Positions 3,426 to 22,093 of a stretch of DNA of 64,000 bases are shown one piece after another (the first letter of the stretch is position 1; the number at the start of each line of letters is the position of its first letter). The notes under the pieces were generated by a model. The model had not been told where the DNA came from. It saw only the letters and a list, made by a program, of their open reading frames with translations, and searched no databases. The position numbers and the translations under genes were made by a program. Source of the DNA: Christensenella sp. Its GTDB lineage: Bacteria > Bacillota > Clostridia > Christensenellales > CAG-138. The stretch covers positions 26,412 to 90,411 of the forward strand of contig JAYFPQ010000069.1 of the NCBI GenBank assembly GCA_034927595.1, read 5' to 3'.

Positions 3426-4505
3426 TTACAACTCGGCGAACTCCACGCGATCCCGCCCGTTCTGTTTGGCGCGATAGAGGCAGGCATCCGCTAGGGTAAC
3501 GAGCTGCGCGGCGGTGCAGTGTTCGGTGGTTTTCGCGAGCGCCGCGCCAACGCTGACCGTAATATGAACGCAACAGGGTTCAATTGGGATGTCGCTCGAC
3601 TGAATGCTCGCGTGCAGCGCTTCGGCAACCGCTTTCGCGTCTTTGCAGGCCGGAATCAGCACGGCAAACTCCTCGCCGCCCCAACGGCAGACGTTCGCCT
3701 GCGCGCCCGCGCCTTCCTGTATCCTACGCGCAACGTCTTGCAGCACTAGATCGCCCTGCATGTGCCCATATTCGTCGTTGATTCGTTTGAAGAAGTCGAT
3801 GTCGAGAATGATCAGCGCGAGGTTTTCGCGGTGCTCCTGAAAATAGCGATCCATCAGCTCGTTGAACCCGTAGCGGTTGAATACGCCGGTCAGCGCGTCG
3901 TGCGCGTAGAGCGAGCGGTAGAGCGCCTGCGTTTCGAGCAGCTTGTTCTGCGTGAGTTCCCGCATGGTTTCCAGCAGCAGTGACGCAAAGTAAAACGCGA
4001 GGTACAGCATCGGAAACCGGATTTTGAACGTTGCGGAATACGCGTATTGCACCAGCGACTGCCCGAACGGGGTGTGCAGGAGAAACAGCAGCTCCAGCAG
4101 CATCCCAAGGCAGATCAGCGTGCCCGTTTTCCGCCCGAACGCCAATAGGCCGCAGGCGGGCAGCAGGCAGACCCAGAGAATGCTGAATCCGTCCGGATTG
4201 CCGGAGATGATGAAATACGTCAGCAGCAGATAGAAGCTCACGACAAATGCAATCAGCGAAACAAGAAGATCGATTCGGTGTTTCAGCAGCAGTAGAAAAA
4301 TCAGCGCACAAAAAACGGCATACACGGCGGTGGACACCGTCAGCATGCCCTTGTGGGAGAGGATGTTCATAACGGTCATGCCCGCGGCAATGAGGCTCAA
4401 CAACGCGTAGATGTTGAGGAACAAAAAATAACGCTGCTCGCGGCTGTCGAGCAGGGACGCCTGCAGTCGTTGTTGAAACCGAAGGAGGAATTTCTTCATA
4501 AACAC
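3426..4505 (-). CDS. Membrane-bound diguanylate cyclase (GGDEF)
   Basis: About 6 hydrophobic N-terminal segments; DALTGVFNR, LDIDFFKRINDEYGHMQGD, RWGGEEF motifs. Confidence 0.9.
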   Translation of the reverse strand: MFMKKFLLRFQQRLQASLLDSREQRYFLFLNIYALLSLIAAGMTVMNILSHKGMLTVSTAVYAVFCALIFLLLLKHRIDLLVSLIAFVVSFYLLLTYFIISGNPDGFSILWVCLLPACGLLAFGRKTGTLICLGMLLELLFLLHTPFGQSLVQYAYSATFKIRFPMLYLAFYFASLLLETMRELTQNKLLETQALYRSLYAHDALTGVFNRYGFNELMDRYFQEHRENLALIILDIDFFKRINDEYGHMQGDLVLQDVARRIQEGAGAQANVCRWGGEEFAVLIPACKDAKAVAEALHASIQSSDIPIEPCCVHITVSVGAALAKTTEHCTAAQLVTLADACLYRAKQNGRDRVEFAEL

Positions 4506-4610: not shown

Positions 4611-4639
4611 TTGACACAAACATAGCTTTGTGTTAACAT
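4611..4639 (+). promoter_or_regulatory. SigA promoter with overlapping inverted-repeat operator candidate
   Basis: TTGACA(4611)-17 nt-TAACAT(4634); ACACAAA-N6-TTTGTGT at 4614-4633. Confidence 0.65.
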
Positions 4640-4726
4640 CGACGAAAATAGGCGAATCGCCTCATTTTTCGGCAGAAGTGCCAAAAAATGAGTTCCATGT
4701 TTCATAAAACAGGTCTTTGCGGCACG

Positions 4727-4767
4727 TCCTTGATGCCTCCTTTCGGTGGTTTCAAGGATATTTTTTT
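4727..4767 (+). terminator. Terminator-like hairpin inside the leader of the LeuA-like gene
   Basis: TCCTTGA...TCAAGGA stem followed by TATTTTTTT, 34 nt before the ATG. Confidence 0.55.
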
Positions 4768-4800: not shown

Positions 4801-6222
4801 ATGGGAAACATACTCATTTCCGACGTAACCCTGCGTCAGGAACGCAAACGGACCGAAGCCGCGCTGAGCTTCCGTGAAAAACTGGAGATCGCGCGCGCTC
4901 TGGACCGACTGCGACTTAGCGGCGTTGAACTACCTTCCATTCAAAACGAAAAAGCGGATACGCTCCTCATCAAGTCCGTTGCCTCCGCGGTGAAGGACAG
5001 CCGCGTTGTCCTCGCCGCCGCGCTTTCGAGCGAGGGCGTCGAGCAGGCGTATGCCGCCATCAAGGAAGCGAACAAACCCTGCCTTCAGATTGCGGTGCCG
5101 ACCTCGACCGCGCAGATGGAATACATCTGCCATAAAAAGCCGGATCAGATTCTGTCGCTCATCGGCGAGCTCGTCAAGCAGGCGAAGTCCCTCTGCAAAG
5201 AGGTGGAGTTTGTCGCCGAGGACGCGACCCGCAGCGACGTGGAGTTTCTCTATCGCGCCATCGACACGGCAATTTCGGCGGGCGCGAGCATCGTGACGCT
5301 GGTGGACGGCTCGGAGGGGATGCTCCCCGCGCGCTTCGGCCAGTTCATTCGGGACGCGTATGCTCATGTACCGGCGCTGAGCAAGGTGTTGCTCGGCGTG
5401 CAGTGCGCGGACGGGCTGAGCCTTGCCGCGGCCGCGGCGCTGAGCGCCGTCGAAGCGGGCGCGGGACTGGTCAAGACCAGCACCGGCGGGGACGGCGTCT
5501 TGCCGCTCGAAACCATCGCGGGGATTCTGCGCGCGCGCGGGGTTGAACTCAACCTGAGCTCGAACATCGCGATGACCGAGCTGAGCCGCGCGGCGGGACA
5601 GGTGCGCTGGATGGTCAGCGCCAAGCGCGGAGCCGCTTCCGACTTTGAGGCGGGCGCGGCGCGCTCTATGGACGAAGCCGTCGTGTTGTCGAGCGAAAGC
5701 TCGCTTTCGGATATCTCCGCCGCCGTGCAGAAGCTCGGCTACGACCTCTCCGAAGAGGACAACGCAAAGGTATACGCCGCGTTTTTACGCATTGCGGATA
5801 AGAAAAACGTTGGCGAAAAGGAACTGGACGCAATCGTCGCGAGCGCGGCGCTGCAGGTTCCGCCGACCTATACGTTGGAAAGCTACGTCATCAACAGCGG
5901 AAACGTCATCACCGCGACCGCGCAGGTCAAGCTGCTCAAGCAGGGCAAGACGCTCTCCGGTTTTGCGGTTGGCGACGGCCCGATTGACGCGGCGTTTCTC
6001 GCCATTGAGCAGATCATTGGCCACCATTATGAGCTGGACGATTTCCAGATTCAGGCGGTTACGGAAGGGCGCGAGGCAATGGGCAGTGCGCTGGTGCGCC
6101 TCCGCGAGGACGGCAAGCTCTACTCCGGCAAGGGTATATCGACCGATATCATCGGCGCGAGCATCCACGCCTACCTCAACGCGCTCAACAAGATTGTCTA
6201 CGAGGAGGGCGCCCGTGCATGA
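4801..6222 (+). CDS. Degenerate 2-isopropylmalate synthase homologue with intact C-terminal leucine-binding regulatory domain
   Basis: LeuA-like fold (DVTLR, EFVAEDATR) but DGEQ->QERK and HxH->QCA; C-terminal GDGPIDA...STDIIGAS regulatory domain conserved. Confidence 0.8.
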   Translation: MGNILISDVTLRQERKRTEAALSFREKLEIARALDRLRLSGVELPSIQNEKADTLLIKSVASAVKDSRVVLAAALSSEGVEQAYAAIKEANKPCLQIAVPTSTAQMEYICHKKPDQILSLIGELVKQAKSLCKEVEFVAEDATRSDVEFLYRAIDTAISAGASIVTLVDGSEGMLPARFGQFIRDAYAHVPALSKVLLGVQCADGLSLAAAAALSAVEAGAGLVKTSTGGDGVLPLETIAGILRARGVELNLSSNIAMTELSRAAGQVRWMVSAKRGAASDFEAGAARSMDEAVVLSSESSLSDISAAVQKLGYDLSEEDNAKVYAAFLRIADKKNVGEKELDAIVASAALQVPPTYTLESYVINSGNVITATAQVKLLKQGKTLSGFAVGDGPIDAAFLAIEQIIGHHYELDDFQIQAVTEGREAMGSALVRLREDGKLYSGKGISTDIIGASIHAYLNALNKIVYEEGARA

Positions 6223-6291: not shown

Positions 6292-8793
6292 ATGAAACTG
6301 AGCTTTTCCACCCGAGGCTGGGGCGAATGCGGCTGGGAGGATTTCCTCGCCGCGGCAAAGGCGACCGGATACAGCGGCGTTGAGCTGCACGGGGTTGCGC
6401 ACTCCGCCTGGTCGCAGGACGGCGCGCCGTTTTCGCGCGCAAACGCAAGCCGGACGGTTCGGCGGTTGTTTGACGAGGGTCTCTGCATCAGCTGCGTGGA
6501 CTCCGTTTGCGACATTTCGTCCGCCGAGACGGACAAGGACGCGGAGCTGACCGAGACCATTCAACTGGCGCACGATTTTTCGATTCCCTATGTGCGACTT
6601 CGTGCGCTGGACGGCAGCGAAGCGGGCATTCAGGCGGCCTACGAGCGCATTTCGCGCGCGCTGCCGTTTGCCGAGGAGCGCGGCGTCATTCTGCTCGTGG
6701 AGACCGTAGCCGCCTTTGCGGACACGGCGAAGCTACAGAGCTTTTTAACCCGGTTTGCGAGCGACTCTCTCGCGGCGCTCTGGGATTTTCACCATCCCTA
6801 TTTTGACCACAGCGAATCGCCCGAAATGAGCATTAAGAACCTCGGCGCGTATGTCAAGCACGTTCACGTCAAGGACGCGGCGGACGGAGACTTCTGCCTG
6901 CCCGGCGAGGGCACGCTGCCGATGGCGGAGCTCATGTCTGCGCTGAGCTCGATCAACTACGACGGTTTCCTCTCGCTCGAGTGGGACCCCAAGTGGATGC
7001 CGGAGATGGACGATCTGGAGAGCGTGCTTGCGCACTTTTCCAACTATATGCAGCGCTTTGGCACCACCGCGCGGCAGAAACCGAAACGCTACCAGAACAA
7101 CGCCAAGACCGGCACGTTCGTCTGGCGGAAGGACATTCTGATCGATGCGACGTTTTCGCAGGTGCTCGACCGCATGGCGGAGGAGTATCCGGATCAGTAT
7201 GCGTTCAAGTATACGACGCTGGACTATACGCGGACCTATTCGGAATTCCGCGAGGACGTAGATCGCTGCTGCCGCGCGCTCGTGAGCATGGGCGTCGGCC
7301 CCGGCAGCCACGTCGCGGTCTGGATGACGAACCTGCCGCAGTGGTACATCGCCTTCTGGGCGGCACCCAAGATCGGCGCGGTGCTCGTCACCGTCAACAC
7401 AGCGTATAAGATTCACGAGGCGGAATATCTGCTCAAGCAGAGTGACACGCATACGCTGATTCTGGAGCAGGGGTATCGGGATTCGGACTATTCCGGCATT
7501 ATTGCCGAACTCTGCCCCGAACTGAAGACCACGCGCCCCGGCGAACACCTGCACGCAAGACGACTGCCGTTTTTACGAAACGTCGTCTCCGTCGGATACA
7601 AGCAGGAGGGCTGCCTGAACTGGGAAGAGATGATGGCGCGCTACAGCCGCACGCCCATCGAAGAGGTCAAGCGCCTTGCCGCTGCGGTCAACCCGCACGA
7701 CGTTTGCAACATGCAGTACACGAGCGGCACGACGGGTTTCCCCAAGGGCGTTATGTTGACGCACTACAACATCGTGAACAACGGCAAGTGCATCGGCGAC
7801 CGCATGGATCTCTCCACCGCGGATCGCATGATGATTCAGGTGCCGATGTTCCATTGCTTCGGCATGGTGCTGGCGATGACCGCCTGCGTGACGCACGGGT
7901 CGACCATGCTGCCGCTGCCGTACTTTTCGCCGAAACCCGCGCTGGCCTGCATCGATCAGGAGCACATTACCGCGTTCCATGGCGTACCGACGATGTTCAT
8001 CGCCATGCTGGAGCATCCGGACTTCCCGAAGACGGATTTCTCGTGCATGCGTACGGGCATTATGGCGGGCAGCCCCTGCCCGATCAAGGTCATGCAGGAC
8101 GTGCTCGAACAGATGCACATGGATCAGATCACGATCGTATTCGGTCAAACCGAAGCGTCGCCGGGCTGCACCATGAGCTCGACGGACGACCCCATCGAGG
8201 TGCGCGTTGGCACCGTCGGCCGCGCCCTGCCGGAGATCGAGTGCCGCATCGTCAGCCCGGAGACGGGCGAGGTGCTGCCGGTCGGCGAGATTGGCGAGTT
8301 TGTGGCGCGCGGTTACAACATCATGAAGGGCTACTACAAGATGCCCGGCGCGACGCGCAGCGCGATTGACGCCGAAGGCTGGCTGCACACGGGCGACCTC
8401 GCCTGCGAAACGCCGGAGGGGAACTACCGCATCACGGGCCGGCTCAAGGACATGATCATTCGCGGCGGCGAGAACATCTACCCCAAGGAGATTGAGGAGT
8501 TCCTCTACACGCACCCCAAGGTGAAGGATGTTCAGGTCATCGGCGTGCCGAGCGAGCAATATGGCGAGGAGATCATGGCCTGCGTCATCCTCAAAGAGGG
8601 CGAGTCCGCCACCGAACAGGAGATTCAGGACTACGTTCGCGCGAGCATGGCCAAGCACAAGGTGCCGAAGTATGTGGCGGTGGTGGACTCCTTCCCGATG
8701 AACGCGGCGGGCAAGATCATGAAGTACAAAATGCGCGAGGACGCGATCCAGAAACTCGGTCTGCAAAAGGCCGCGAGTGTGGTCACCGCATAA
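6292..8793 (+). CDS. Fusion: xylose-isomerase-like TIM barrel + AMP-dependent acyl-CoA synthetase
   Basis: N-term LVET/WDFHH/HVHVKD/SLEW metal motifs; C-term YTSGTTGFPKG, FGQTE, LHTGDL, IIRGGENIYP. Confidence 0.9.
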   Translation: MKLSFSTRGWGECGWEDFLAAAKATGYSGVELHGVAHSAWSQDGAPFSRANASRTVRRLFDEGLCISCVDSVCDISSAETDKDAELTETIQLAHDFSIPYVRLRALDGSEAGIQAAYERISRALPFAEERGVILLVETVAAFADTAKLQSFLTRFASDSLAALWDFHHPYFDHSESPEMSIKNLGAYVKHVHVKDAADGDFCLPGEGTLPMAELMSALSSINYDGFLSLEWDPKWMPEMDDLESVLAHFSNYMQRFGTTARQKPKRYQNNAKTGTFVWRKDILIDATFSQVLDRMAEEYPDQYAFKYTTLDYTRTYSEFREDVDRCCRALVSMGVGPGSHVAVWMTNLPQWYIAFWAAPKIGAVLVTVNTAYKIHEAEYLLKQSDTHTLILEQGYRDSDYSGIIAELCPELKTTRPGEHLHARRLPFLRNVVSVGYKQEGCLNWEEMMARYSRTPIEEVKRLAAAVNPHDVCNMQYTSGTTGFPKGVMLTHYNIVNNGKCIGDRMDLSTADRMMIQVPMFHCFGMVLAMTACVTHGSTMLPLPYFSPKPALACIDQEHITAFHGVPTMFIAMLEHPDFPKTDFSCMRTGIMAGSPCPIKVMQDVLEQMHMDQITIVFGQTEASPGCTMSSTDDPIEVRVGTVGRALPEIECRIVSPETGEVLPVGEIGEFVARGYNIMKGYYKMPGATRSAIDAEGWLHTGDLACETPEGNYRITGRLKDMIIRGGENIYPKEIEEFLYTHPKVKDVQVIGVPSEQYGEEIMACVILKEGESATEQEIQDYVRASMAKHKVPKYVAVVDSFPMNAAGKIMKYKMREDAIQKLGLQKAASVVTA

Positions 8794-8867: not shown

Positions 8868-8892
8868 ACCAATAATTTCATACAGAACAAAA

Positions 8893-9159
8893 GGCTGTGA
8901 CGAAGACGGACGAACGCGCCGCACAAAGAGAGCCGGGGAGGGTGAAATCCCGGCGGCAGGCTACTTCACAATCCCATCCCTTCCGAGCCGAAAACTTGAA
9001 ACGGAGTTTCCGAAATAGGGTTTTCCGTATTTGCCGCGTAAAGGCAAAAGGCTTGTTGGAGCCTGACGAGTGGCGTTTTCACAAACGCAAGTTGAGTGGT
9101 ACCGCGGGACAAATCAAAATGATTGCCCGTCTCAAGAGAAATCTTGGGACGGGTTTTTT
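8893..9159 (+). promoter_or_regulatory. T-box riboswitch, predicted Ile specifier (AUC)
   Basis: GA motif GCTGTGA, AGAGAG/GGTGAAA stem I top, GTTGAGTGGTACCGCG T-box at 9091, terminator 9126-9159; AUC at 8976-8978. Confidence 0.85.
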
Positions 9160-9280
9160 CTATTTTTCTACTGCTGCGCAGTATTGCTTATTTAGAAACT
9201 GCTTCATGAGAAGCAAAGAAAAAGGAACTCCGGCTTGTGCCCGCAGGGCACACAAAAAATAATCCTATTCAGGAGGGACT

Positions 9281-11551
9281 ATGGAAACAGTCGAACTCAA
9301 CAGCCAATTGCTTGAAATCGCCTACCGCATTCGCGAGATGCGCGAAATTTCCGGGTTCACGCGGGACGAGATGGCAAAACGCACGGACGTCACCTTGCAG
9401 GAATACACCGACTACGAGGCGGGCAAGATGGACTTTCCGTTTACGTTTATCCATAAGTGCGCGGTTGCGTTCGGCATTGGCATTACCGACCTGCTCGAGG
9501 GCGACAGCGCCAAGCTTTCGTCCTACACGGTGACCCGCAAAGGTCAAGGGCAGATGGCGGCAAAAGAGGACGGAATCGAGATCAGCTCGCTGGCCCCGAT
9601 GTTCCGCAACAAGGTCGCCGAGCCATACTGGGTGCGCTATGCATACTCCGAGTCCCAGCAAAACCGCCCGATCCACCTGACGACGCACAACGGGCAGGAG
9701 TTTGACCTCGTGCTCCACGGTTCGCTCAAGGTGCAGGTCGGCGAGCACACCGAGATCCTGCGCGAGGGCGACAGCATCTACTACAACAGCGCAACGCCGC
9801 ACGGCATGATTGCCGTCGAGGGCAGCGAGTGCCTGTTTCTCGCGGTCGTGCTGCCGGGCGAGGGCGCGGCGAACACCGCCGAGCTGCACACGAGCATCGT
9901 GGAAGCGCGCAGAGCCGAGGATTACGTCTGCAACCGTTTTGTCAAAACGCAGGAAGACGAGCACGGCGCGCTCCAGCACGTGGACTTCGTGGACACCGAC
10001 AAATTCAACTTTGCGTTCGACATTGTGGACGCCATCGCGAAGAAAGCGCCAAACAAGCTCGCCATGCTGCACGTGGACATGGACGGCGTGGAGCGGAAGT
10101 TCTCGTTTGAGGACATGAGCAAGGCCAGCAACCGCACCGCGAACTACTTCCGTTCGCTCGGCATCAAGAAGGGCGACAAGGTCATGCTCGTGCTCAAGCG
10201 CCGCTACCAGTTCTGGTTTGCGATGCTGGCGTTGCATAAGATTGGCGCGGTCGCGATTCCCGCGACATATCAGCTCGTTGCGCACGACTTTACCTATCGC
10301 TTCCAGGCGGCGGGCGTCAGTGCGCTGGTCTGCACGGCGGACGGCGAAGCGGCGGCGCAGGCGGAGCTGGGGCAGGAGGGCTGCCCGGAGCTGACGACGA
10401 AGATTCTCGTCGGCGGAACGCGCGAGGGCTGGCACGACTTCGACAGTGAATATCAGCGCTTCAGCAGCCGTTTTGAGCGTCCGGACGACGCGATTGCGGG
10501 CGAGGACACGATGCTGATGTTCTTTACGAGTGGCACGACGGGTTATCCAAAGATCGCGTCGCATAGCTGCACCTACGCGCTGGGACACTTCGTCACCGCG
10601 AAATACTGGCATCAGGTGCACTCCGACGGGCTGCATTTAACCATTTCGGACACCGGCTGGGGCAAGGCGCTCTGGGGCAAGATCTACGGGCAGTGGCTCT
10701 GTGAAGCGGCGATCGCCACGTTTGAATTCGAGCGGTTCGACGCGAAGTACCTTATTCCGCTGTTTGCCAAGCACAAGGTGACGACGCTCTGCGCGCCGCC
10801 GACGATCTACCGCATGATGATTAAGGAAGACCTGAGCAAGTTTGACTTTTCGACCATTGTCCACGCGACGACGGCGGGCGAGGCGCTCAACCCCGAGGTG
10901 TTCTATCAGTTTGAACAGGCGACGGGGCTACGCATCATGGAAGGATTCGGACAGACGGAAACGACGCTGCTCGTGGCCTGCCTGACCGGAATGAACCCGA
11001 AACCCGGCTCGATGGGGCGTCCGGTGCCAACCTACGACGTCGACCTGCTCACGCCGGAGGGAAAGCCAGCCGAGCTCGGCGAACCCGGCGAAATCGTGAT
11101 CCACGTGGACAAAGGCCATCCCTGCGGACTGTTCCAGGGGTACTATCGGGACGAGGAACAGACCCGCGAGGCGGTCTGTGACGGAATCTACCACACGGGC
11201 GATCTCGCCTGGCGGGACGAGGACGGCTACTATTGGTACGTTGGCCGCCGGGACGACGTCATCAAGAGCTCCGGCTACCGCATCGGGCCGTTTGAGATTG
11301 AGAATGTCATCATGGAACTGCCATATGTGCTCGAGTGCGGCGTGTCTGCGGCGCCCGACGAGCTGCGTGGCCAGGTGATCAAGGCGAGCATCGTGCTCAC
11401 CGCCGGCACCGAGGGCACCGAGGAGCTCAAGAAAGAGATTCAGGAGTACGTAAAAACGCATACCGCGCCGTATAAATACCTGCGCAGTGTCGTCGTCCGC
11501 GACGAGCTGCCAAAGACGATCAGCGGCAAAATCATGCGCCGCCTGCTCTAA
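9281..11551 (+). CDS. XRE-HTH + cupin + medium-chain acyl-CoA synthetase fusion (paralogue 1)
   Basis: IAYRIREMREISG HTH, HNGQEFDLV cupin, FTSGTTGYPK, GFGQTET, YHTGDL, IKSSGYRIGPFEIE. Confidence 0.9.
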   Translation: METVELNSQLLEIAYRIREMREISGFTRDEMAKRTDVTLQEYTDYEAGKMDFPFTFIHKCAVAFGIGITDLLEGDSAKLSSYTVTRKGQGQMAAKEDGIEISSLAPMFRNKVAEPYWVRYAYSESQQNRPIHLTTHNGQEFDLVLHGSLKVQVGEHTEILREGDSIYYNSATPHGMIAVEGSECLFLAVVLPGEGAANTAELHTSIVEARRAEDYVCNRFVKTQEDEHGALQHVDFVDTDKFNFAFDIVDAIAKKAPNKLAMLHVDMDGVERKFSFEDMSKASNRTANYFRSLGIKKGDKVMLVLKRRYQFWFAMLALHKIGAVAIPATYQLVAHDFTYRFQAAGVSALVCTADGEAAAQAELGQEGCPELTTKILVGGTREGWHDFDSEYQRFSSRFERPDDAIAGEDTMLMFFTSGTTGYPKIASHSCTYALGHFVTAKYWHQVHSDGLHLTISDTGWGKALWGKIYGQWLCEAAIATFEFERFDAKYLIPLFAKHKVTTLCAPPTIYRMMIKEDLSKFDFSTIVHATTAGEALNPEVFYQFEQATGLRIMEGFGQTETTLLVACLTGMNPKPGSMGRPVPTYDVDLLTPEGKPAELGEPGEIVIHVDKGHPCGLFQGYYRDEEQTREAVCDGIYHTGDLAWRDEDGYYWYVGRRDDVIKSSGYRIGPFEIENVIMELPYVLECGVSAAPDELRGQVIKASIVLTAGTEGTEELKKEIQEYVKTHTAPYKYLRSVVVRDELPKTISGKIMRRLL

Positions 11552-11688: not shown

Positions 11689-11753
11689 GTACGAAATTAA
11701 ACGCCCGTTGCGTAACTTACGCGGCGGCAACGTTCCACACAAGGTCTAAAAAA

Positions 11754-12058
11754 GGCTGAGACGGAGAGGATCGCGTCCCGATTGCTTTTGCAGAGACCCG
11801 GCGGCTGGTGAAAGCCGGGATGGCATGGACGATGATTTGTAGCTCCCGAGCCGGAAGGAAGAACACCGAGCATACGGTTCGGCAAGTAGAACCTTCCCGT
11901 GCATGCGGCGTTACGGCATAGGGCTTATTGGAGCCTGAAGAGGGGTATCGGCGGCAACGTCGGTGCAATTTGAGTGGTACCGCGGGTAAAAGCTACGAGC
12001 TGCACTCGTCTCAAAGATGATCGGACTATTACGGGATCATCTTGGGGACGATTTTTTT
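11754..12058 (+). promoter_or_regulatory. T-box riboswitch, predicted Val specifier (GUA)
   Basis: GGCTGAGA GA motif, CAGAGA/GGTGAAA, TTTGAGTGGTACCGCG T-box at ~11969, terminator 12006-12058; GUA at 11839-11841. Confidence 0.85.
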
Positions 12059-12149
12059 GTACCTTTCGGTGATGTTCCAGAGCGTCCGAGCGCAACTGAG
12101 CAATCATGCCGGGGTGGTTTTCGCCGCCGGACGAAAGGGAGCAGGCAAT

Positions 12150-14441
12150 ATGAAGGGCAGCAACAGCGAACTCGATTTCCAGCTACAGGAGATGGCGGCT
12201 CGCATCCGCGAGCTAAGGCGCATCTCAAACCTGAGCACCGCCGAGATGGCAGAGCGCACCGGCGTCTCCGAGGCGGAATACACCTCTTGCGAAAGCGGAG
12301 GGCACGATCTCAGCTTCGCGTTCATCTACCGCTGCGCAATGGCATTTGGCGTGAACGTCACGGACATCATCGAGGGCACGAGCCCGACGCTGCGTGGCTA
12401 CGCGATTACCCGCGCGGGCGAGGGTGCGCGCATTGAGCAGGCGCACGGCATGGTCTACTATAACCTCGCCGCGCCGTTTCAGAACCGCATTTCCGAGCCG
12501 CTCTATGTCGAGGTTGGCTACAACCCCGAGGCGGAGCAGAAGGACATTGAACTCACCACGCACGAGGGTCAAGAGTGCGACCTCGTGATCAGCGGCACGC
12601 TCAAGCTCCAGATCGGTTCGCATACGGAGATTCTGCACAAGGGCGACTGCGCGTACTTCGATAGCTCGATTCCCCACGGCATGATCGCCGTCGGCGGCGA
12701 GGACTGCCGGTTTTACGCGATTGTCCTGAACCCCTCCGCCTACAAGGACGCGCACAGTACCGAGGCCATCCAAAATCCGGCCTGGGAACGGCCGGACGAG
12801 TCGGCGCAGCCGCGCATCTTCAACAAGTTTATCCATCCAACCATCGACGCGGACGGGAACCCCACCGCGTTGACTTTCGAGAATACGGACAAGTTCAACT
12901 TCGCGTTTGACATTGTGGACGGCCTCGCGGAGAAATATCCGGACAAGCTCGCGATGCTACATATTTCGAAGGACAAGACCGAGCGGCGCTTCACGTTTGG
13001 CGACTTCAAGCGCGCGAGCGCGCAGTGCGCAAACTACTTCGCCTCCCTCGGCATCCAGCGCGGGGACCGCGTGCTGCTCGTGCTCAAGCGGCATTACCAG
13101 TTCTGGTTTGCGCTCTTGGGGCTGCACAAGCTCGGCGCCATCGGCATTCCCGCGACGTATCTGCTGCAGGAGCACGACTACGCCTACCGCTTCGAGAAGG
13201 CGGGCATCAGCGCGATCATCTGCACGGCGGACGAGGACGCCGCGGAAACGGCCGACCGCGCAGCGGCGGGGTTTTCCGGCAAACTCACGAAGATTCTCGT
13301 CGGCGGCAAGCGCGACGGCTGGCACGATTTTGACAGCGAGTATTCGCGCTTCTCCGGCCGTTTTCCGCGCGAAGCGGACGCGCCCTGCGGCGACGATTTG
13401 ATGCTCATGTTCTTCACGAGCGGCACGACGGGGCAGCCAAAGCTCGCCGCGCATACCTATAAATACCCGCTGGGCCACCACATCACCGCCGACTACTGGC
13501 AGTGCGTAAATCCAAACGGCCTGCATCTAACGATTTCGGATACCGGCTGGGCAAAGGCAATGTGGGGCAAGCTCTACGGGCAGTGGCTCAGCGAGGCGGC
13601 GGTGTTTGTTTACGACTTTGACCGGTTTGACGCGGCGGATATTCTGCCGATGTTTGCGAAATACAACATCACGACCTTCTGCGCGCCGCCGACGATGTAC
13701 CGCATGCTGATTAAGGAGGATCTCTCCAAGTACGATCTGAGCTCCATCAAGCACGCAACCATTGCGGGCGAGGCGCTCAACCCGGAGGTCTTCCGCCAAA
13801 TGGAGAAGTCCACCGGATTGCAGCTCATGGAGGGATTCGGCCAGTCCGAAACCACGCTGGTGATCGGCAACCTCCGCGGCGGCACCCACAAGGTTGGCTC
13901 AATGGGCAAGCCCGTTGCGCTCTACGACGTGGATCTCGTCGACCCGGATGGAAATCCCGTGGAAACGGGAACGAACGGCGAAATCGTCATTCGCATCGAA
14001 AACGGCGATCCCTGCGGGTTGTTTAAGGAGTACTACCGGGACGACGAGGCGAACCGCGAGGCCAAGCGCGACGGACTGTACCATACCGGCGACCTCGCCT
14101 GGAAGGACGAGGACGGCTACTATTGGTACGTGGGCCGCGCGGACGATTTGATCAAATCCTCCGGCTACCGCATCGGGCCGTTCGAAATTGAGAGCGTCAT
14201 CATGGAACTGCCATACGTGCTCGAATGCGGCATCTCCGCCGAGCCGGACGATATCCGCGGGCAGATCATCAAGGCGAGCATCGTGCTCACCGCGGGCACC
14301 GAAGGTACGGAAGCGCTCAAGTCCGAGATTCAGGAGTACGTCAAGAGCCACACCGCGCCGTATAAATATCCGCGCATCGTGGTGTTCCGCGAGAGCCTGC
14401 CAAAGACGACGAGCGGAAAGATCATCCGAAGGCTGCTATAG
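12150..14441 (+). CDS. XRE-HTH + cupin + medium-chain acyl-CoA synthetase fusion (paralogue 2)
   Basis: Colinear with 9281-11551 (HEGQECDLV, FTSGTTGQPK, GFGQSET, YPRIVVF); ATG 12150 after AAAGGGAG. Confidence 0.9.
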   Translation: MKGSNSELDFQLQEMAARIRELRRISNLSTAEMAERTGVSEAEYTSCESGGHDLSFAFIYRCAMAFGVNVTDIIEGTSPTLRGYAITRAGEGARIEQAHGMVYYNLAAPFQNRISEPLYVEVGYNPEAEQKDIELTTHEGQECDLVISGTLKLQIGSHTEILHKGDCAYFDSSIPHGMIAVGGEDCRFYAIVLNPSAYKDAHSTEAIQNPAWERPDESAQPRIFNKFIHPTIDADGNPTALTFENTDKFNFAFDIVDGLAEKYPDKLAMLHISKDKTERRFTFGDFKRASAQCANYFASLGIQRGDRVLLVLKRHYQFWFALLGLHKLGAIGIPATYLLQEHDYAYRFEKAGISAIICTADEDAAETADRAAAGFSGKLTKILVGGKRDGWHDFDSEYSRFSGRFPREADAPCGDDLMLMFFTSGTTGQPKLAAHTYKYPLGHHITADYWQCVNPNGLHLTISDTGWAKAMWGKLYGQWLSEAAVFVYDFDRFDAADILPMFAKYNITTFCAPPTMYRMLIKEDLSKYDLSSIKHATIAGEALNPEVFRQMEKSTGLQLMEGFGQSETTLVIGNLRGGTHKVGSMGKPVALYDVDLVDPDGNPVETGTNGEIVIRIENGDPCGLFKEYYRDDEANREAKRDGLYHTGDLAWKDEDGYYWYVGRADDLIKSSGYRIGPFEIESVIMELPYVLECGISAEPDDIRGQIIKASIVLTAGTEGTEALKSEIQEYVKSHTAPYKYPRIVVFRESLPKTTSGKIIRRLL

Positions 14442-14509
14442 CTGTTATAATAGGGGAGTAGCGCGCGGGCGAAATCGCCAAAGCGCAGAGCGAGGAGAAG
14501 CAAACAACG

Positions 14510-15157
14510 TTGAATGCCAAGCGCGTGACCATTCTGACCGGACACTACGGCAGCGGAAAAACGAGCATCGCGGTGCAATACGCGCTGCGCCTGCGCGAAG
14601 CGGGCAACGCGGTCTCCATCTGCGACCTCGACATCGTGAATCCGTACTTCCGCTCGACGGATCACCGCGCGGAGTTGGAGGCGGCGGGCGTTTGCCTCGT
14701 AACCTCCCAGTTTGCGGGCAGCAACCTCGATATTCCCGCGCTGCCCAAGGAGCTCTACGCCGCCATTGCGGACAAGAGCGGCTATGCGGTGCTGGACGTC
14801 GGCGGCGACGACAGGGGCGCGGTTGCGCTGGGGCGCTATGTGCCGGACATCGTTGGCGAAGGCAATTACGAAATGCTCTTTGTCGCGAACTTCTACCGCC
14901 CGCTGACGAAGACGGCCGAGGACGCGTTGCAGGTTCTGCGCGAGGTGGAAGCCGCCTGCGGCATGCGTGTCACCGCGCTGGTCAACAACAGCAACCTTGG
15001 CTTGGAGACGAGCGCGGAGGATGTGCTGGGAACCGTTGATCGTATGGAGCGCTTCGCGCAGCTTGCCGAACTGCCAATCGCGTTTACGAGCGTGAGCAAT
15101 CGATTGAAAGAACAGTTAGATCATCAATTAGAGCATCCGTTTTGGATGAACTTTTAG
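14510..15157 (+). CDS. Uncharacterised P-loop ATPase (ParA/MinD-like) associated with the VOR operon
   Basis: GHYGSGKT Walker A, DLDIVNPYFRS, LDVGGD; TTG start after GAGGAG. Confidence 0.7.
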   Translation: MNAKRVTILTGHYGSGKTSIAVQYALRLREAGNAVSICDLDIVNPYFRSTDHRAELEAAGVCLVTSQFAGSNLDIPALPKELYAAIADKSGYAVLDVGGDDRGAVALGRYVPDIVGEGNYEMLFVANFYRPLTKTAEDALQVLREVEAACGMRVTALVNNSNLGLETSAEDVLGTVDRMERFAQLAELPIAFTSVSNRLKEQLDHQLEHPFWMNF

Positions 15158-15236
15158 ATAATAAGTCTCAGTAAATAGGGAATCCATTTTAGATGAATTT
15201 TTAGAAATCAAGCACAAAGACAGGAAAGGCGATACC

Positions 15237-15443
15237 ATGGCAAAAGTGACGTTTGAGACGAATCTTTGCAAAGGCTGCGGGCTCTGCGTAGACGCATGCC
15301 CCAAGAAGATCCTCAAGATCGATCGAGAGACGATCAACCAAAAGGGACACTCGCCCGCCGCAATGACGGACGAAGCACAGTGCATTGGCTGCGGCTTCTG
15401 CGCCACCATGTGCCCCGACTGCGTAATTACGGTGGAAAGGTAA
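15237..15443 (+). CDS. 2x[4Fe-4S] ferredoxin (oxidoreductase delta subunit)
   Basis: CKGCGLCVDACP and CIGCGFCATMCP. Confidence 0.9.
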   Translation: MAKVTFETNLCKGCGLCVDACPKKILKIDRETINQKGHSPAAMTDEAQCIGCGFCATMCPDCVITVER

Positions 15444-15454
15444 GGGCAAACAGC

Positions 15455-16519
15455 ATGGCGGACAAGGTTTTAATGAAGGGCAACGAGGCCATCGCCGAGG
15501 CGGCGATCCTCGCGGGCTGCCGACACTACTTCGGCTACCCGATCACCCCGCAGACGGAGATTGCGGCCTATATGGCAAAGCGGATGCCGAAGATCGGCGG
15601 CGTGTTTCTGCAGGCCGAGAGCGAAATTGCGGCGATCAACATGGTCTACGGCGTATCCGCCGCGGGCAAGCGCGTGATGACCAGCTCCTCGAGCCCCGGC
15701 ATTTCGCTCAAGGGCGAGGGTTTGAGCTATCTTGCGGGCAGCGACCTGCCGGCGTTTCTCGTGAACGTTCAGCGCGGCGGCCCGGGCCTCGGCGGCATTC
15801 AGCCCTCGCAGGCGGACTATTTTCAGGCGACGCGCGGCGGCGGCCACGGCGACTATCACATGATCGTGCTCGCGCCCGCCTCCGTTCAGGAGATGGCGGA
15901 TTTGACCGTCAAGGGCTTTGACCTCGCGGATAAATACCGCATGACGGCAATGATCCTCGCGGACGGCACCATCGGACAGATGATGGAGCCCGTCTCCCTC
16001 GATATCGGCGAGCAGAAGGTCTACGACAAGCCCTGGGCGCTCACCGGAACCAAGATGGAGCGTGAGCACAACATCGTGACCTCGCTGTTTCTCAAGCCGG
16101 AAGCGCTGGAGCAGCTCAACTTTGAGCGCTACGCGCGCTATCGCATTGTCGAAGAGAACGAGGTCATGTACGAGTCGTTCCAGATGGACGACGCGGAAAT
16201 CTGCGTCGTAGCTTACGGAATTACGGCGCGCGTTTCGAAAAACGCCGTGACCGCCGCGCGTGCCAAGGGCATCCGCGTCGGACTGATTCGCCCGATTACG
16301 CTCTGGCCGTTCCCGAAAGCGGTGCTGGCCGAGGCGGCAACGCGGGTCAAGTCTTTCCTCTCGGTGGAGATGTCCATGGGGCAGATGATCGAGGACATCG
16401 AACTCTCGATTCGCTGCGCAAAACCGGTGACCCTCGTCAACCGCGTCGGCGGCATGATCCCGACGCCGGAGCAGGTACTTTCCGCCATTGAACAGGCGGC
16501 AGGAGGTGACAAGAAATGA
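15455..16519 (+). CDS. vorB: 2-oxoisovalerate-type 2-oxoacid:ferredoxin oxidoreductase alpha subunit
   Basis: GNEAIAEAA, GYPITPQTE, ESEIAA, SSSPG, QRGGPGLG. Confidence 0.85.
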   Translation: MADKVLMKGNEAIAEAAILAGCRHYFGYPITPQTEIAAYMAKRMPKIGGVFLQAESEIAAINMVYGVSAAGKRVMTSSSSPGISLKGEGLSYLAGSDLPAFLVNVQRGGPGLGGIQPSQADYFQATRGGGHGDYHMIVLAPASVQEMADLTVKGFDLADKYRMTAMILADGTIGQMMEPVSLDIGEQKVYDKPWALTGTKMEREHNIVTSLFLKPEALEQLNFERYARYRIVEENEVMYESFQMDDAEICVVAYGITARVSKNAVTAARAKGIRVGLIRPITLWPFPKAVLAEAATRVKSFLSVEMSMGQMIEDIELSIRCAKPVTLVNRVGGMIPTPEQVLSAIEQAAGGDKK

Positions 16520-17262
16520 TTGTCGCAAAACGTCCGAATTCGCTGACCGCAACGCCCACGCATTATTGCCCGGGCTGCACGCACGGCATTATTCACCGCC
16601 TCGTCGCGGAGGCGATCGACACGCTGGGCATCGAGGGACGCACCATTGGCGTCGCGCCCGTCGGCTGTTCGGTGCTGGCGTATAACTATTTCACGGTCGA
16701 CATGATCGAAGCAGCGCATGGGCGCGCGCCCGCGGTTGCTACTGGAGTCAAGCGCGCGGAGCCGGGCAACATCGTCTTTACCTATCAGGGCGACGGCGAC
16801 CTCGCGAGCATCGGCATGGCGGAGACCGTCCACGCCGCGGCGCGGAACGAGAACATTACGATTATCTTCGTAAACAACGCGATCTACGGTATGACCGGCG
16901 GCCAGATGGCGCCGACCTCGCTGCCGGGGCAGGTCACCCAGACCTCGCCTTACGGACGCGACGTGACCCAGTGCGGCTACCCGATTCGCGTCTGCGAAAT
17001 GCTCTCCGAGCTCGAAGGGCCGGAGTACCTCGCCCGCGTTGCGGTCAACAGCGTGAAAAACGTCAATGCCGCGAAAAAGGCAATTGAGAAGGCGTTCCGC
17101 AATCAGATTGAGGGCAAGGGCTTCTCGCTGGTCGAGGTCGTCTCCGGCTGCCCGACGAACTGGGGCATGACGCCGCAGGCCGCGCTCAAATGGATTGACG
17201 ACGCGATGATTCCCTACTATCCGCTTGGGGTCTACAAGGACCGCAGCGCAAAGGAGGCGTAA
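16516..17262 (+). CDS. 2-oxoacid:ferredoxin oxidoreductase beta (TPP-binding) subunit
   Basis: YCPGCTHG, QGDGDLASIG, NNAIYGMTGGQ. Confidence 0.9.
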   Translation: MIVAKRPNSLTATPTHYCPGCTHGIIHRLVAEAIDTLGIEGRTIGVAPVGCSVLAYNYFTVDMIEAAHGRAPAVATGVKRAEPGNIVFTYQGDGDLASIGMAETVHAAARNENITIIFVNNAIYGMTGGQMAPTSLPGQVTQTSPYGRDVTQCGYPIRVCEMLSELEGPEYLARVAVNSVKNVNAAKKAIEKAFRNQIEGKGFSLVEVVSGCPTNWGMTPQAALKWIDDAMIPYYPLGVYKDRSAKEA

Positions 17263-17268
17263 CGCGCT

Positions 17269-17820
17269 ATGGCTAACAAGAGCAAGACTACGCGCATCCT
17301 CATTGCCGGATTTGGCGGACAGGGTGTACTGTTCATGGGAAAACTGCTTGCCTACGTCGGCATGGCGGAGGATCGTCAGGTCAGCTGGCTGCCCTCCTAC
17401 GGGCCGGAAATGCGCGGCGGCACGGCGAATTGCAGCGTGATTCTGAGCGACGACCCCATCGGTTCGCCCATCGTGGACGCGCCGGACGTGCTGATCGCCA
17501 TGAACCTGCCGTCGTTTCAGAAGTATCAGAACGCCGTCGTTCCCGGCGGCTCCATCGTGCTGGACTCCTCGCTGATTGGCGAAGCACCGGCGCGTAAGGA
17601 CATTTCCTACTACGCGCTGCCCGCGACGCAGCTGGCGACGGACGAGCATCTGGACGGGTTGAGCAACATGATTCTGCTCGGTAAGTTCCTCGAAGCCTGC
17701 CTGCCGACGAGCGGCGAGCTCACGAAAAAGGCGCTCTTGAAGGTGGTTCCCGCGAAAAAGGAACACCTGCTCGCGTCGAACGAACAGGCCATTGCGCTCG
17801 GACGGGCGTATCAGGGGTAA
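17269..17820 (+). CDS. 2-oxoacid:ferredoxin oxidoreductase gamma subunit
   Basis: [20 protein letters not shown]. Confidence 0.9.
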
Positions 17821-17826
17821 GAAACG

Positions 17827-18615
17827 ATGAAGATCGCCTGCGTGCAGATGGACGTGCTCCCGGGCAAGCCGGAGCAAAACTATGCCATCGCCGAGGCGCT
17901 GATTCGAAAGGCCGCGCGAAAACAGCCGGACGTCATCCTACTGCCGGAAACGTGGAACACGGGCTTTGCGCCACAGCACCTCGACCCCGCGCAGGCGGAC
18001 GAGGACGGCGCGCGAACGAAGCGCTTATGTTCCGCGCTGGCTAAGGAACTGGGGGTCAACCTGCTTGCGGGCAGCGTCACGACCCGCCGCGCGGACGGGC
18101 TCTACAACACCGCCTACGGGTTCAACCGCTCGGGCGAGCTCGTTTGCAGCTACGACAAGACGCATCTGTTCTCCCCGCTGGGGGAGGACAAGGCGTATCG
18201 AAAGGGCGGTTCCCTCGCGTGTTTTACGCTGGACGGAGTCAATTGCGCGCTGATCACCTGCTACGACCTGCGTTTTCCGGAGCTGGCGCGCACGCTGGCG
18301 CTGCCGGGGCTGGATGTGCTCTTTGTGGTCTCCCAGTGGCCGAAGCAGCGGATTTCGCATCTAGAGACGCTCGCAAGAGCGCGCGCAATTGAGAACCAAA
18401 CGTTCGTCGCGGTGTGCAACGCCTGCGGAAATGCGTATGGAACGAAGTTCGGCGGGCGCTCAATGGTGATCGATCCGCTGGGGAACATCCTCCGGCAGGC
18501 GGGATCACGCGAGAGCGTTCTACATGCAGAAATCTCGCTGGGCATGCTCGCGCAGGTGCGGCAGGCGATTCCGGTATTTCAGGATCGCAGGCCGGAACTC
18601 TATTCATTGGATTAA
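17827..18615 (+). CDS. Carbon-nitrogen hydrolase (nitrilase/omega-amidase family)
   Basis: LPETWN, YDKTHLF, TCYDLRFPE (E-K-C triad). Confidence 0.9.
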   Translation: MKIACVQMDVLPGKPEQNYAIAEALIRKAARKQPDVILLPETWNTGFAPQHLDPAQADEDGARTKRLCSALAKELGVNLLAGSVTTRRADGLYNTAYGFNRSGELVCSYDKTHLFSPLGEDKAYRKGGSLACFTLDGVNCALITCYDLRFPELARTLALPGLDVLFVVSQWPKQRISHLETLARARAIENQTFVAVCNACGNAYGTKFGGRSMVIDPLGNILRQAGSRESVLHAEISLGMLAQVRQAIPVFQDRRPELYSLD

Positions 18616-18662
18616 ACTGGTTTGGTCATATATTACAGATAAAGCAGAGGTGGAAAAAGAAC

Positions 18663-19742
18663 ATGAGCTACGAATTTTCAATCACGAAAAACCCGAATCC
18701 CAAGCCGAAGCCGGATCCCAATACGTTGGTCTTCGGTCAGGTGTTCACCGACCACATGTTCGTCATGGACTATGACGAAGGCAAGGGCTGGCACGACGGC
18801 CGCATTCTTCCCTACGGCGACATTCTGATCAGCCCGGCGAGCAGCGTGCTGCACTACGCGCAGATGATGTTTGAAGGCATGAAGGCGTACCGTACCGAGG
18901 ACGGTCATGTTCAGCTGTTCCGCCCGGAGATGAACGCGCGCCGCCTGAACCGGACGAACGAACGTATGTGCATGCCGCAGATGGACGAGGATCTCTTCGT
19001 CGCGGCGGTCAAGGCCGTGGTCAAGATGGACGCGGACTGGGTGCCGGATGCGCCGTTTACCTCGCTGTACGTGCGCCCGTTCATCATTGCGGACGATCCG
19101 GCGCTCGGCGTAAAATCCGCCAAGCACTTCCGCTTCATGATCATTCTCTGCCCGTCCGGCCCGTACTATGCGGCAAACCGCGGCAAGCTCTCGACGACGC
19201 GCATCTTCGTGGAAGACGAGTTCATCCGCGCGGCGCACGGCGGAACGGGCTACGCCAAGGTTGGCGGCAACTACGCGGGTTCGCTCCGCGCGTCCCAGAA
19301 GGCGCACGAGTGCGACTGCAACGACGTGCTCTGGCTGGATGCCATCGAGCACAAATACGTCGAAGAGGTTGGTTCCTCCAACGCGTTCTTCATGATTGGC
19401 GACGAGGTCATTACGGCTCCGCTGGCGGGTACGATTCTGCCGGGCATCACGCGGGATTCCGTGTTGACGCTGCTGCGTGAATGGGGCATCCGCGCGAGCG
19501 AGCGCAAGATTTCGATTGACGACATCATTGAAGCGGCGAAGAAGGGCGAGCTGAAGGAAGCCTTTGCCAGCGGCACCGCGGCGGTCATCTCACCGATGGG
19601 CCTGCTGCACTACCAGGACAAGGAATACACCATCGGCAACCGCGAGGTCGGCCCGATTTCGCAAAAGCTCTACGACACCATCACCGGCATCCAGACCGGC
19701 AAGATTGCGGATACGCACGGCTGGATTCAGCGTGTCGTCTGA
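18663..19742 (+). CDS. ilvE: Branched-chain amino acid aminotransferase
   Basis: LHYAQMMFEGMKAY, KVGGNYA, EEVGSSN, ILPGITR, GTAAVISP. Confidence 0.95.
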   Translation: MSYEFSITKNPNPKPKPDPNTLVFGQVFTDHMFVMDYDEGKGWHDGRILPYGDILISPASSVLHYAQMMFEGMKAYRTEDGHVQLFRPEMNARRLNRTNERMCMPQMDEDLFVAAVKAVVKMDADWVPDAPFTSLYVRPFIIADDPALGVKSAKHFRFMIILCPSGPYYAANRGKLSTTRIFVEDEFIRAAHGGTGYAKVGGNYAGSLRASQKAHECDCNDVLWLDAIEHKYVEEVGSSNAFFMIGDEVITAPLAGTILPGITRDSVLTLLREWGIRASERKISIDDIIEAAKKGELKEAFASGTAAVISPMGLLHYQDKEYTIGNREVGPISQKLYDTITGIQTGKIADTHGWIQRVV

Positions 19743-19951: not shown

Positions 19952-19970
19952 GAACGCAATTGAATTTCTA

Positions 19971-20246
19971 ACGCGATGACGGAAACCAGTACCCGTTCAA
20001 GAAGCTTTTTTCAGAGAGCCGCCAATTGGTGCGAAGCGGCAGAAGCGGGAGCGGCGAATTCCTTCCCGAGCGGCTTGCTGAAGCGAAGGTGGTAGGCAAA
20101 GACGGGCGCGCCCGATACAGCGCCGGGGGTATGACAGCGTATCCCAACGAGGCCTTTTCGCGCAAGCGAGCGGCAAATAGAGGTGGTACCACGGGAATCA
20201 GCCCGTCCTCTGCGGAAACAACATCCGCGGAGGGCGGCTTTTTTAT
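19971..20246 (+). promoter_or_regulatory. T-box riboswitch, predicted Phe specifier (UUC)
   Basis: CGCGATGA GA motif, CAGTA, CAGAGAG/GGTGCGAA, GAA-UUC at 20056-20061, AAATAGAGGTGGTACCACG T-box, terminator ~20201-20246. Confidence 0.9.
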
Positions 20247-20329
20247 TTGCCGGAATTCGCGAAGAATAAAAAAGTAAAAAACGGCATTGCAAATTGCTTG
20301 CCTGCCGGAGTATAAAGGAGAAGAGAACC

Positions 20330-21637: not shown

Positions 21638-21664
21638 CCGAAACAGAACAGAGGAGGAAGCAGC

Positions 21665-22093
21665 ATGATACAGCAACTCTCGGTCTTTCTGCAGAACGAA
21701 CCCGGCAAGCTCGCCGCCATCACGACCGCGCTCGCCGAGGGCGGACTCGACCTGCGCGCGCTCTCCATTGCGGACACCACGGACTTTGGCATTCTGCGCA
21801 TGCTCGTCAGCGACGCGGCCAAGGCGCGGGCCATCCTCGAACAGAAGCGCTACTCCGCGAGCGTCACCGCCGTGACCATCGTCGCCGTGCCGGACGTGCC
21901 GGGCGGGCTCGCGGGCGTGCTGACTATGCTCGCAAATGAGGGCGTGGACATTGAATACATGTATTCGCTGATCGGCCGCGGGGAGGACAAGGCGTATATG
22001 GTCTTCCGCGCGACGGACGGGGCAAAGCTTCTCGCGGCGCTTGCGCAGCACGGCATCGCCACCATCTCCAACGAGGAGCTCGGCATTCGCTAA
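21665..22093 (+). CDS. Tandem ACT-domain amino acid-binding protein
   Basis: QLSVFLQNEPG...DVPGGL...IEYMY; typical paaK neighbour. Confidence 0.85.
   Translation: MIQQLSVFLQNEPGKLAAITTALAEGGLDLRALSIADTTDFGILRMLVSDAAKARAILEQKRYSASVTAVTIVAVPDVPGGLAGVLTMLANEGVDIEYMYSLIGRGEDKAYMVFRATDGAKLLAALAQHGIATISNEELGIR

Follow-up and report, generated by a model that had tools for sequence, protein, structure and literature searches.

What is the role of a gene whose product has kept the domain order of 2-isopropylmalate synthase (LeuA), has lost the catalytic motifs of that enzyme, and is encoded directly ahead of an acyl-CoA ligase? This question is raised by a locus in a stretch of 64,000 nucleotides (nt) of Christensenella sp. 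DNA (contig JAYFPQ010000069.1, positions 26,412 to 90,411 of the forward strand), which is called the window below and whose numbering is used for all positions. We propose that the product of the gene at 4801-6222, hereafter the LeuA-like protein, is an inactive descendant of short-form LeuA that serves as a non-catalytic leucine-sensing subunit of the adjacent ligase, which is itself fused to a TIM barrel (TIM::ligase), and we put the probability of this reading at about 50%. The two genes comprise the following parts:

4801-5595, forward strand: N-terminal HMGL-like TIM barrel of the LeuA-like protein (residues 1-265); fold kept, metal ligands lost
5596-5808, forward strand: linker subdomains of the LeuA-like protein (residues 266-336); SGIHQDG segment absent
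5809-6222, forward strand: allosteric/dimerisation domain of the LeuA-like protein (residues 337-473) and stop codon; GDGPIDA, EAMG and STD near-invariant
6292-7101, forward strand: N-terminal xylose-isomerase-like (AP_endonuc_2) TIM barrel of the partner; E137, D165, H192 and E230 kept in the window copy
7162-8793, forward strand: AMP-forming acyl-CoA ligase domain of the partner, a predicted isovalerate-CoA ligase with all ANL core motifs

The open reading frame (ORF) at 4801-6222 gives a stop-free translation of 473 amino acids (aa). Its ATG at 4801 sits 8 nt after GGAAGGAG and the relatives are 467-477 aa in length, for which reasons this start was favoured over an upstream TTG at 4717. 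The product is colinear with LeuA, consisting of an HMGL-like barrel, a linker and a LeuA_dimer domain. Pfam searches placed HMGL-like (PF00682) at residues 4-264 with 136 bits and LeuA_dimer (PF08502) at residues 337-465 with 110 bits, the latter covering 129 of the 131 model positions. The LeuA equivalog models of NCBIfam matched the protein in two pieces and at no more than 300 bits, against cutoffs of 532-748; the best of them, NF002086, gave 300 bits (cutoff 532) and TIGR00973 gave 278 bits (cutoff 599). Both LeuA domains were thus recognised by hidden Markov models, and the score stayed below the cutoff of every LeuA equivalog.

The motifs were read from residue alignments to the LeuA structures 3ewb, 3rmj and 6e1j and to Escherichia coli LeuA (b0074, set label L087), to which the window protein is 28% identical over its full, colinear length. 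The results were as follows:

DTTLRDGEQ of LeuA reads SDVTLRQERK in the window protein
HxHDDLG of LeuA (H-T/C-H-DDLG) reads QCADGLS
GIGERAGN of LeuA reads GG----DGV, a four-residue deletion; GERAGN is absent
SGIHQDG of LeuA (in AHSSGIHQDG) reads ASDFEAG (in GAASDFEAG); SGIHQDG is absent
GNGPVDA of LeuA reads GDGPIDA; GDGPIDAAF occupies residues 391-399
DALG of LeuA reads EAMG; QAVTEGREAMG occupies residues 418-428
ATDI of LeuA reads STDI; STDIIGAS occupies residues 447-454

The metal ligands are therefore replaced, the Asp by Q13 and the two His of HxH by Q201 and A203 (QxA), and the SGIHQDG segment, by which LeuA contributes a catalytic His across the dimer, is missing. Each of the motif losses that a preliminary description of this DNA had listed (LRDGEQ to LRQERK, HxH to QCA, and the missing GERAGN and SGIHQDG) was confirmed by these alignments, and its view that the C-terminal allosteric domain is preserved agrees with the PF08502 match and with the presence of GDGPIDAAF, QAVTEGREAMG and STDIIGAS. 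Within that domain, G428 of the window protein is aligned with G462 of E. coli LeuA, and a G462D change has been used to abolish leucine feedback in the E. coli enzyme (PMC6345581).

The structural model is in agreement with the motif reading. AlphaFold2 gave a confident eight-stranded barrel (predicted local distance difference test score, pLDDT, about 90), which Foldseek superposed on the LeuA structures 3rmj, 3ewb and 3eeg (from Neisseria meningitidis, Listeria and Cytophaga, respectively) at a root-mean-square deviation of 1.7-1.9 Å over about 278 residues. Residues 275-292 in the linker have pLDDT values below 50, and residues 411-447 of the regulatory domain are poorly modelled in the monomer, which is expected because this domain works as a dimer.

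The LeuA-like protein is not peculiar to the window. Relatives fall into more than 120 clusters at 53-99% identity among the matches listed, and when one genome was scanned for each species, at least 575 species genomes proved to carry the gene. Most of the carriers among the matches listed are Clostridia from gut and rumen (Acutalibacteraceae, Oscillospiraceae, Lachnospiraceae and Ruminococcus); further carriers belong to the Coriobacteriaceae and Eggerthellaceae (Coriobacteriia) and to the Synergistaceae, and the cultured Neobittarella massiliensis has the gene as well. The names given to these relatives by NCBI are confined to 'alpha-isopropylmalate synthase regulatory domain-containing protein' and 'hypothetical protein'.

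To see how the catalytic and regulatory positions behave across the family, residues were counted in 199 non-identical relatives. At the position of the metal-binding Asp, Gln was found in 91, Glu in 53 and Leu in 15, followed by Arg, Cys and Phe; at that of the first His, Gln in 101, Glu in 25 and Ser in 20, followed by Arg, Lys and Ala; and at that of the second His, Ser in 109, Thr in 28 and Ala in 23, followed by Ile, Asp and Lys. At none of these positions (13, 201 and 203) does the ancestral Asp or His rank with the six most frequent residues, which together account for 178-182 of the 199 sequences, and the position of the substrate-binding Arg holds Arg in 93 and Lys in 80. The old active site has thus been lost and varies freely, with no new motif established in its place. 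Because the losses recur throughout the family, sequencing errors do not account for them, just as the preliminary description had argued against base-call errors from the window alone. We consider it very likely that the window protein is not an isopropylmalate synthase.

The regulatory domain behaves quite differently from the barrel. GDGPxDA, EAMG and STD are at least 98% invariant, the mean column entropy of the domain is 0.64, and 60% of its columns are at least 90% conserved; for the barrel the corresponding values are 1.53 and 22%. The catalytic residues are thus gone family-wide, yet the protein is under purifying selection. This also bears on the idea of a gene without function, be it a pseudogene in decay or an artefact of annotation: the loss of every catalytic motif would suit such an origin, but intact full-length ORFs (467-477 aa) in at least 575 species genomes, a near-invariant C-terminal domain, a confidently modelled barrel and a conserved operon structure effectively refute it. 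Six barrel residues belonging to the ancestral LeuA pocket, D8, T10, S102, D141, R144 and D169, stay invariant, which may reflect either fold stability or residual ligand binding.

The LeuA-like stop codon is followed after 69 nt by the partner gene, at 6292-8793 on the forward strand. Pfam analysis assigned its first approximately 270 residues to a TIM barrel of the xylose-isomerase-like AP_endonuc_2 family and the part joined to them to an AMP-binding acyl-CoA ligase; the preliminary description, which had placed the gene 69 nt upstream of an acyl-CoA synthetase, was correct as to spacing and ligase but overlooked the fused barrel. The ligase domain is closest to PRK12583 (702 bits, below the cutoff of 832), and the ANL core motifs A3, A5, A8 and A10 (TSGTTGFPKG, F/YGQTE, GRLKD and PxxAAGK) are present in it and invariant. 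Its identity across loci is 66-89%.

The pairing of the two genes is strict. TIM::ligase is the next gene in all 83 of the 83 loci with downstream sequence, starting 0-176 nt past the LeuA-like stop, and overlapping or abutting reading frames of the two are frequent in annotated contigs. The pairing holds in Clostridia, Coriobacteriia and Synergistaceae, which bears out the supposition that homologues would be conserved next to this ligase. In one locus (L005) the TIM::ligase fusion is split into two genes, and no triple fusion of LeuA-like protein, TIM barrel and ligase was found among the top 120 ligase homologues. In N. massiliensis, viewed from the ligase side, the pair is present and the other neighbours are unrelated; the pair is therefore the minimal unit. 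It appears highly probable from these data that the LeuA-like protein and the ligase function together.

The ligase-fused barrel, the second in the module, is largely degenerate. Its window copy, aligned to D-tagatose 3-epimerase, keeps the metal-binding quartet E137, D165, H192 and E230 (E/D/H/E), and all four residues are intact in only 30 of 71 full-length orthologues, patterns among the others including KDHE (14), ENHV (7) and ENHE (6). It is also the least conserved part of the module, with an entropy of 1.79 versus 0.675 for the ligase domain. Its best match in the Protein Data Bank is 'Art22', a name on which nothing relevant was found in the literature. Both barrels of the module hence evolve fast, and its other two domains, the LeuA regulatory domain and the ligase, evolve slowly. 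The fast evolution of the barrels and the patchy quartet speak against a joint metal-dependent reaction of the two barrels, and the possibility that the ligase TIM barrel provides a metal site in trans was rejected on the count of intact quartets.

These observations bear directly on a different explanation, namely that the LeuA-like protein is still an enzyme, with new chemistry. Its barrel, alone or together with the ligase TIM barrel and a protein of the Amidohydro_2 family (PF04909), would then make a leucine precursor, and the ligase substrate would not be plain isovalerate. The invariant ancestral pocket residues and the E/D/H/E retained in the window's fused TIM barrel could be taken in this sense. 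So could the gene neighbourhoods. These were counted for the 51 loci whose downstream sequence reaches 6.5 kb or more, within flanks extending to about 8 kb on each side. Genes of Amidohydro_2, whose members include reversible decarboxylases and hydratases, lie near 22 of the 51 and immediately follow the ligase in 21 (for example at 11923-12762 in L004). However, the window and over half of the loci lack such a gene; the former active-site positions are variable with no new motif fixed; the barrel is the fastest-evolving part of the LeuA-like protein; and the TIM quartet, broken elsewhere by changes such as E to K, D to N and E to V, offers no essential metal in trans. We regard new chemistry as quite improbable.

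We now turn to the ligand. Three T-boxes in the window were identified with Rfam:

8888-9137: Ile T-box, specifier AUC, followed by an HTH-cupin-ligase gene
11749-12016: Val T-box, specifier GUA, followed by an HTH-cupin-ligase operon
19967-20213: Phe T-box, specifier UUC, followed by a PaaK-like ligase gene

(HTH, helix-turn-helix.) The Ile and Val T-boxes score 72-74 bits, under the Rfam gathering threshold of 93. No T-box was found upstream of 4801 in the window with Rfam at E <= 1, and no other Rfam family matched the leader at that threshold. The situation is different in related loci, where a T-box core lies within 500 nt upstream of the LeuA-like gene in 57 of 83. To read the specifiers, 55 non-redundant leaders were aligned with MAFFT, using the window's Phe, Val and Ile T-boxes as register controls. 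The specifier was CUC in 42 and CUG in 13, that is, a leucine codon in 55 of 55. CUC was confirmed for L004 with the Rfam covariance model. For L026 the same model adds 1 nt, so that its reading is ambiguous between UCU and CUG, and the structural register (codon, 1 nt, 4-bp helix and kink-turn) reads CUG.

As every leader specifies leucine, the operon is switched on by uncharged tRNA-Leu in most carriers, and we are fairly sure that it serves leucine supply. The preliminary description had supposed that, for leucine, the LeuA-like protein takes the part played by T-boxes in the Ile and Val branches. This was not supported, since about two thirds of the orthologous operons have both a Leu T-box and the LeuA-like gene; T-box and protein are complementary layers rather than alternatives. 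In N. massiliensis, whose specifier is CUG, two T-box cores GGTGGTACCGCG stand 123 nt apart upstream of the LeuA-like gene (L088, 8350-8590), and this doubling may represent a tandem antiterminator arrangement.

In the window lineage, the region ahead of the gene has other features:

4611-4639, forward strand: promoter-like site TTGACA-17 nt-TAACAT (TG-extended), 10 of 12 matches, kept in L001 and L007, the loci most closely related to that of the window
4726-4767, forward strand: leader hairpin GTCCTTGA...TCAAGGAT (4726-4759) followed by a run of seven T (4761-4767), terminator-like and nested in an outer helix

The window leader folds with a z-score of -5.0, and 6 pairs with compensatory changes, in the upper stem, were seen among the leaders of the window, L001 and L007, to which this leader motif is confined. 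In these three a leader of another type, with its terminator-like hairpin, stands in place of the T-box, and it may be an attenuator that substitutes for the Leu T-box of other lineages. Two further candidates were rejected. The T-box-less leaders are not one new riboswitch class, since the upstream regions of the 26 T-box-less loci are heterogeneous, as are those of the other 24 when the leader trio is set apart; and a palindrome at the promoter is not conserved in L001 or L007. A MASE6-GGDEF diguanylate cyclase gene (3426-4505, reverse strand) stands divergently upstream, and L001 has the same neighbour, so the arrangement is conserved in the lineage.

It is established that rumen microbes carboxylate and aminate isovalerate to form leucine (PMC7356843), and the surroundings of the pair are in keeping with such a pathway. 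Genes for a 2-oxoacid:ferredoxin oxidoreductase (OFOR; VOR-type or a 1165-aa PFOR-type) were found near 28 of the 51 loci, 19 of them downstream on the same strand, genes for a class IV aminotransferase near 15, and MbcS-like HTH-cupin-ligase genes near 27. An AMP-forming ligase, an OFOR and a branched-chain aminotransferase are exactly the activities required to convert an acid into its CoA ester, then into the 2-oxoacid and finally into the amino acid. No true leuA paralogue was found in the window or in the related loci examined, and in the loci seen the LeuA-like gene never occurs in a leuABCD context. The window itself contains three further units of this kind:

8888-11551, forward strand: Ile T-box (8888-9137) and HTH-cupin-acyl-CoA ligase, MbcS-like (9281-11551)
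11749-19742, forward strand: Val T-box, HTH-cupin-ligase, P-loop NTPase, ferredoxin, OFOR alpha, beta and gamma subunits, CN-hydrolase and class IV aminotransferase
19967-22093, forward strand: Phe T-box, PaaK-like ligase (20294-21637) and ACT-pair protein (21665-22093)

By elimination among these branches, and from the Leu T-boxes of the relatives, the LeuA-like/ligase pair is assigned to the leucine branch, and isovalerate is the probable substrate of the ligase. The sister ligases each appear to have a putative ligand-binding module of their own, a fused HTH-cupin in the Ile and Val units and an adjacent ACT pair in the Phe unit. In the ligases at 9281-11551 and 12042-14441, both closest to MbcS, the HTH (XRE-type) and cupin module is N-terminal; its fusion to a ligase is unusual, and it may be a sensor or an autoregulator.

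That every sister ligase in the window has such an accessory, either a cupin or an ACT pair, supports by analogy a sensing partner for the leucine ligase also. According to the reading that we prefer, the ligase would activate isovalerate to isovaleryl-CoA and thereby commit it to a reductive carboxylation route to leucine; the CoA ester would then react with CO2 and reduced ferredoxin to give 2-oxoisocaproate, from which transamination would yield leucine. Transcription of the pair would answer to leucine supply through the tRNA-Leu T-box in most relatives and through the terminator-containing leader in the window lineage. The dimer of the regulatory domain inherited from LeuA would bind leucine and give fast end-product feedback on the ligase, so that the ATP-consuming step would be throttled once leucine suffices. 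Leucine-dependent control of the ligase has, in our estimate, an even chance of being correct. Leucine binding, complex formation and inhibition as the direction of the effect are likewise predictions.

Some indication of how the two proteins might meet was sought in their divergence. Rank correlations of pairwise divergences were computed over 67 loci. The regulatory domain and the ligase domain gave 0.38, against 0.33 for a split-half control within the regulatory domain; the LeuA-like barrel gave 0.35 with the ligase TIM barrel and 0.13 with its own regulatory domain. As weak evidence, these values suggest barrel-to-barrel docking together with contact between regulatory domain and ligase.

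Several points weigh against a leucine-sensing subunit. The divergence correlations are confounded by rate class, as fast domains are paired with fast and slow with slow. The conserved loops (GDGPxDA and the others) are common to the isoleucine-binding citramalate synthase, and therefore the loops alone do not specify leucine. The conservation of the regulatory domain exceeds the needs of a ligand pocket, and a protein interface alone could explain it. The surviving LeuA pocket residues leave room for ligand binding or some activity in the barrel. Finally, the reading gives no role to the fused TIM barrel, whose window copy keeps the full E/D/H/E site.

In another explanation, the LeuA-like protein is an obligate structural or activating subunit, in the manner of a dimerisation scaffold or of the MbtH-like proteins that accompany adenylation domains, and the ligase would depend on it to fold, to oligomerise or to be active. 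The protein would sense no leucine, or would respond to another ligand such as 2-oxoisocaproate or isovaleryl-CoA. An invariant pairing of translationally coupled genes would fit such a subunit, the regulatory domain doubles as the LeuA dimerisation domain (hence its Pfam name), its extreme conservation and its tracking of the divergence of the ligase domain fit a protein-protein interface, and in most relatives the T-box already supplies leucine control. However, the ligand-binding loops and the residue equivalent to G462 are invariant, the parallel ligases in the window carry classical small-molecule modules (cupin, ACT) which suggest sensing as a design feature, and control of one step at both the transcriptional and the allosteric level is the norm in amino-acid pathways. 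On balance we hold a structural or activating subunit without leucine sensing to be unlikely, although less so than new chemistry.

If the leucine-sensing subunit is extended to the whole region, a wider scheme can be put forward tentatively. In gut and rumen anaerobes, each of the Leu, Ile, Val and Phe branches, starting from isovalerate, 2-methylbutyrate, isobutyrate and phenylacetate, respectively, might have its own ligase, its own T-box or attenuator and its own sensor module; in the leucine branch, the dead LeuA barrel might dock on the ligase TIM barrel, and the regulatory dimer might gate adenylation by leucine.

We compared the LeuA-like protein with known systems. Short-form LeuA (EC 2.3.3.13; TIGR00973, PRK00915; 3RMJ, 3EWB) has the same order of DRE-TIM barrel, linker and LeuA_dimer, and its regulatory loops GxGPxDA, DALG/EAMG and TD are kept in the window protein. 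In contrast to LeuA, the family lacks the metal Asp, HxH, GERAGN and SGIHQDG, does not conserve the substrate Arg, has a regulatory domain more conserved than its barrel, the reverse of a catalytic enzyme, and in the loci seen is always paired with a ligase and never placed among leuABCD genes.

In its logic the closest analogue would be HisZ, a catalytically dead paralogue of histidyl-tRNA synthetase that is the histidine-sensing regulatory subunit of the short-form ATP phosphoribosyltransferase HisG. In both cases a paralogue that recognises an amino acid would have lost catalysis and become the allosteric subunit of a committing enzyme. Fold and ancestry are unrelated, however, the partner here is an ANL ligase of a salvage route, and the complex and the feedback are demonstrated for HisZ/HisG whereas for the LeuA-like/ligase pair they are inferred.

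A looser likeness is seen with ACT partners, such as the small subunit of acetohydroxyacid synthase (IlvN/IlvH) and the window's ACT pair at 21665-22093, in which a separate small-molecule binder is encoded beside the first enzyme of a branch as its presumed regulator; the binding domain of the LeuA-like protein differs in being a LeuA regulatory domain on a dead TIM barrel and not an ACT domain. On the ligase side, MbcS, the methylbutyryl-CoA synthetase of Staphylococcus aureus (NF047394), likewise activates branched short-chain acids to CoA esters, and it is the closest match of the window's Ile and Val T-box ligases (420-428 bits). The partner of the LeuA-like protein, however, belongs to another ANL subgroup (PRK12583-like) and has an N-terminal TIM barrel; we know of no accessory pseudoenzyme for MbcS.

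A search of the full-text literature found no published description of a LeuA pseudoenzyme, of this ligase module or of an isovalerate ligase with a T-box. If the leucine-sensing reading is true, the protein would be the first LeuA-derived pseudoenzyme and a case in which an allosteric domain has outlived its catalytic domain and been turned to the control of an unrelated enzyme. Genes could then also be named for the isovalerate-to-leucine route of rumen and gut Clostridia, which explains their need for branched short-chain fatty acids and which, to our knowledge, is long known and genetically uncharacterised. Metabolic models and predictions of auxotrophy would improve for many uncultured gut bacteria, given that at least 575 species genomes carry the module. 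The hypothesis can be tested with two recombinant proteins and one cultured carrier, N. massiliensis.

Two minor observations concern the sister units. The Val operon embeds a small P-loop NTPase gene (14510-15157), with a weak ParA/CbiA-like match, and a CN-hydrolase gene of the nitrilase superfamily (17827-18615). A PaaK-like ligase with an ACT pair, as in the Phe unit of the window, also occurs near the LeuA-like module in a Synergistaceae contig (L006).

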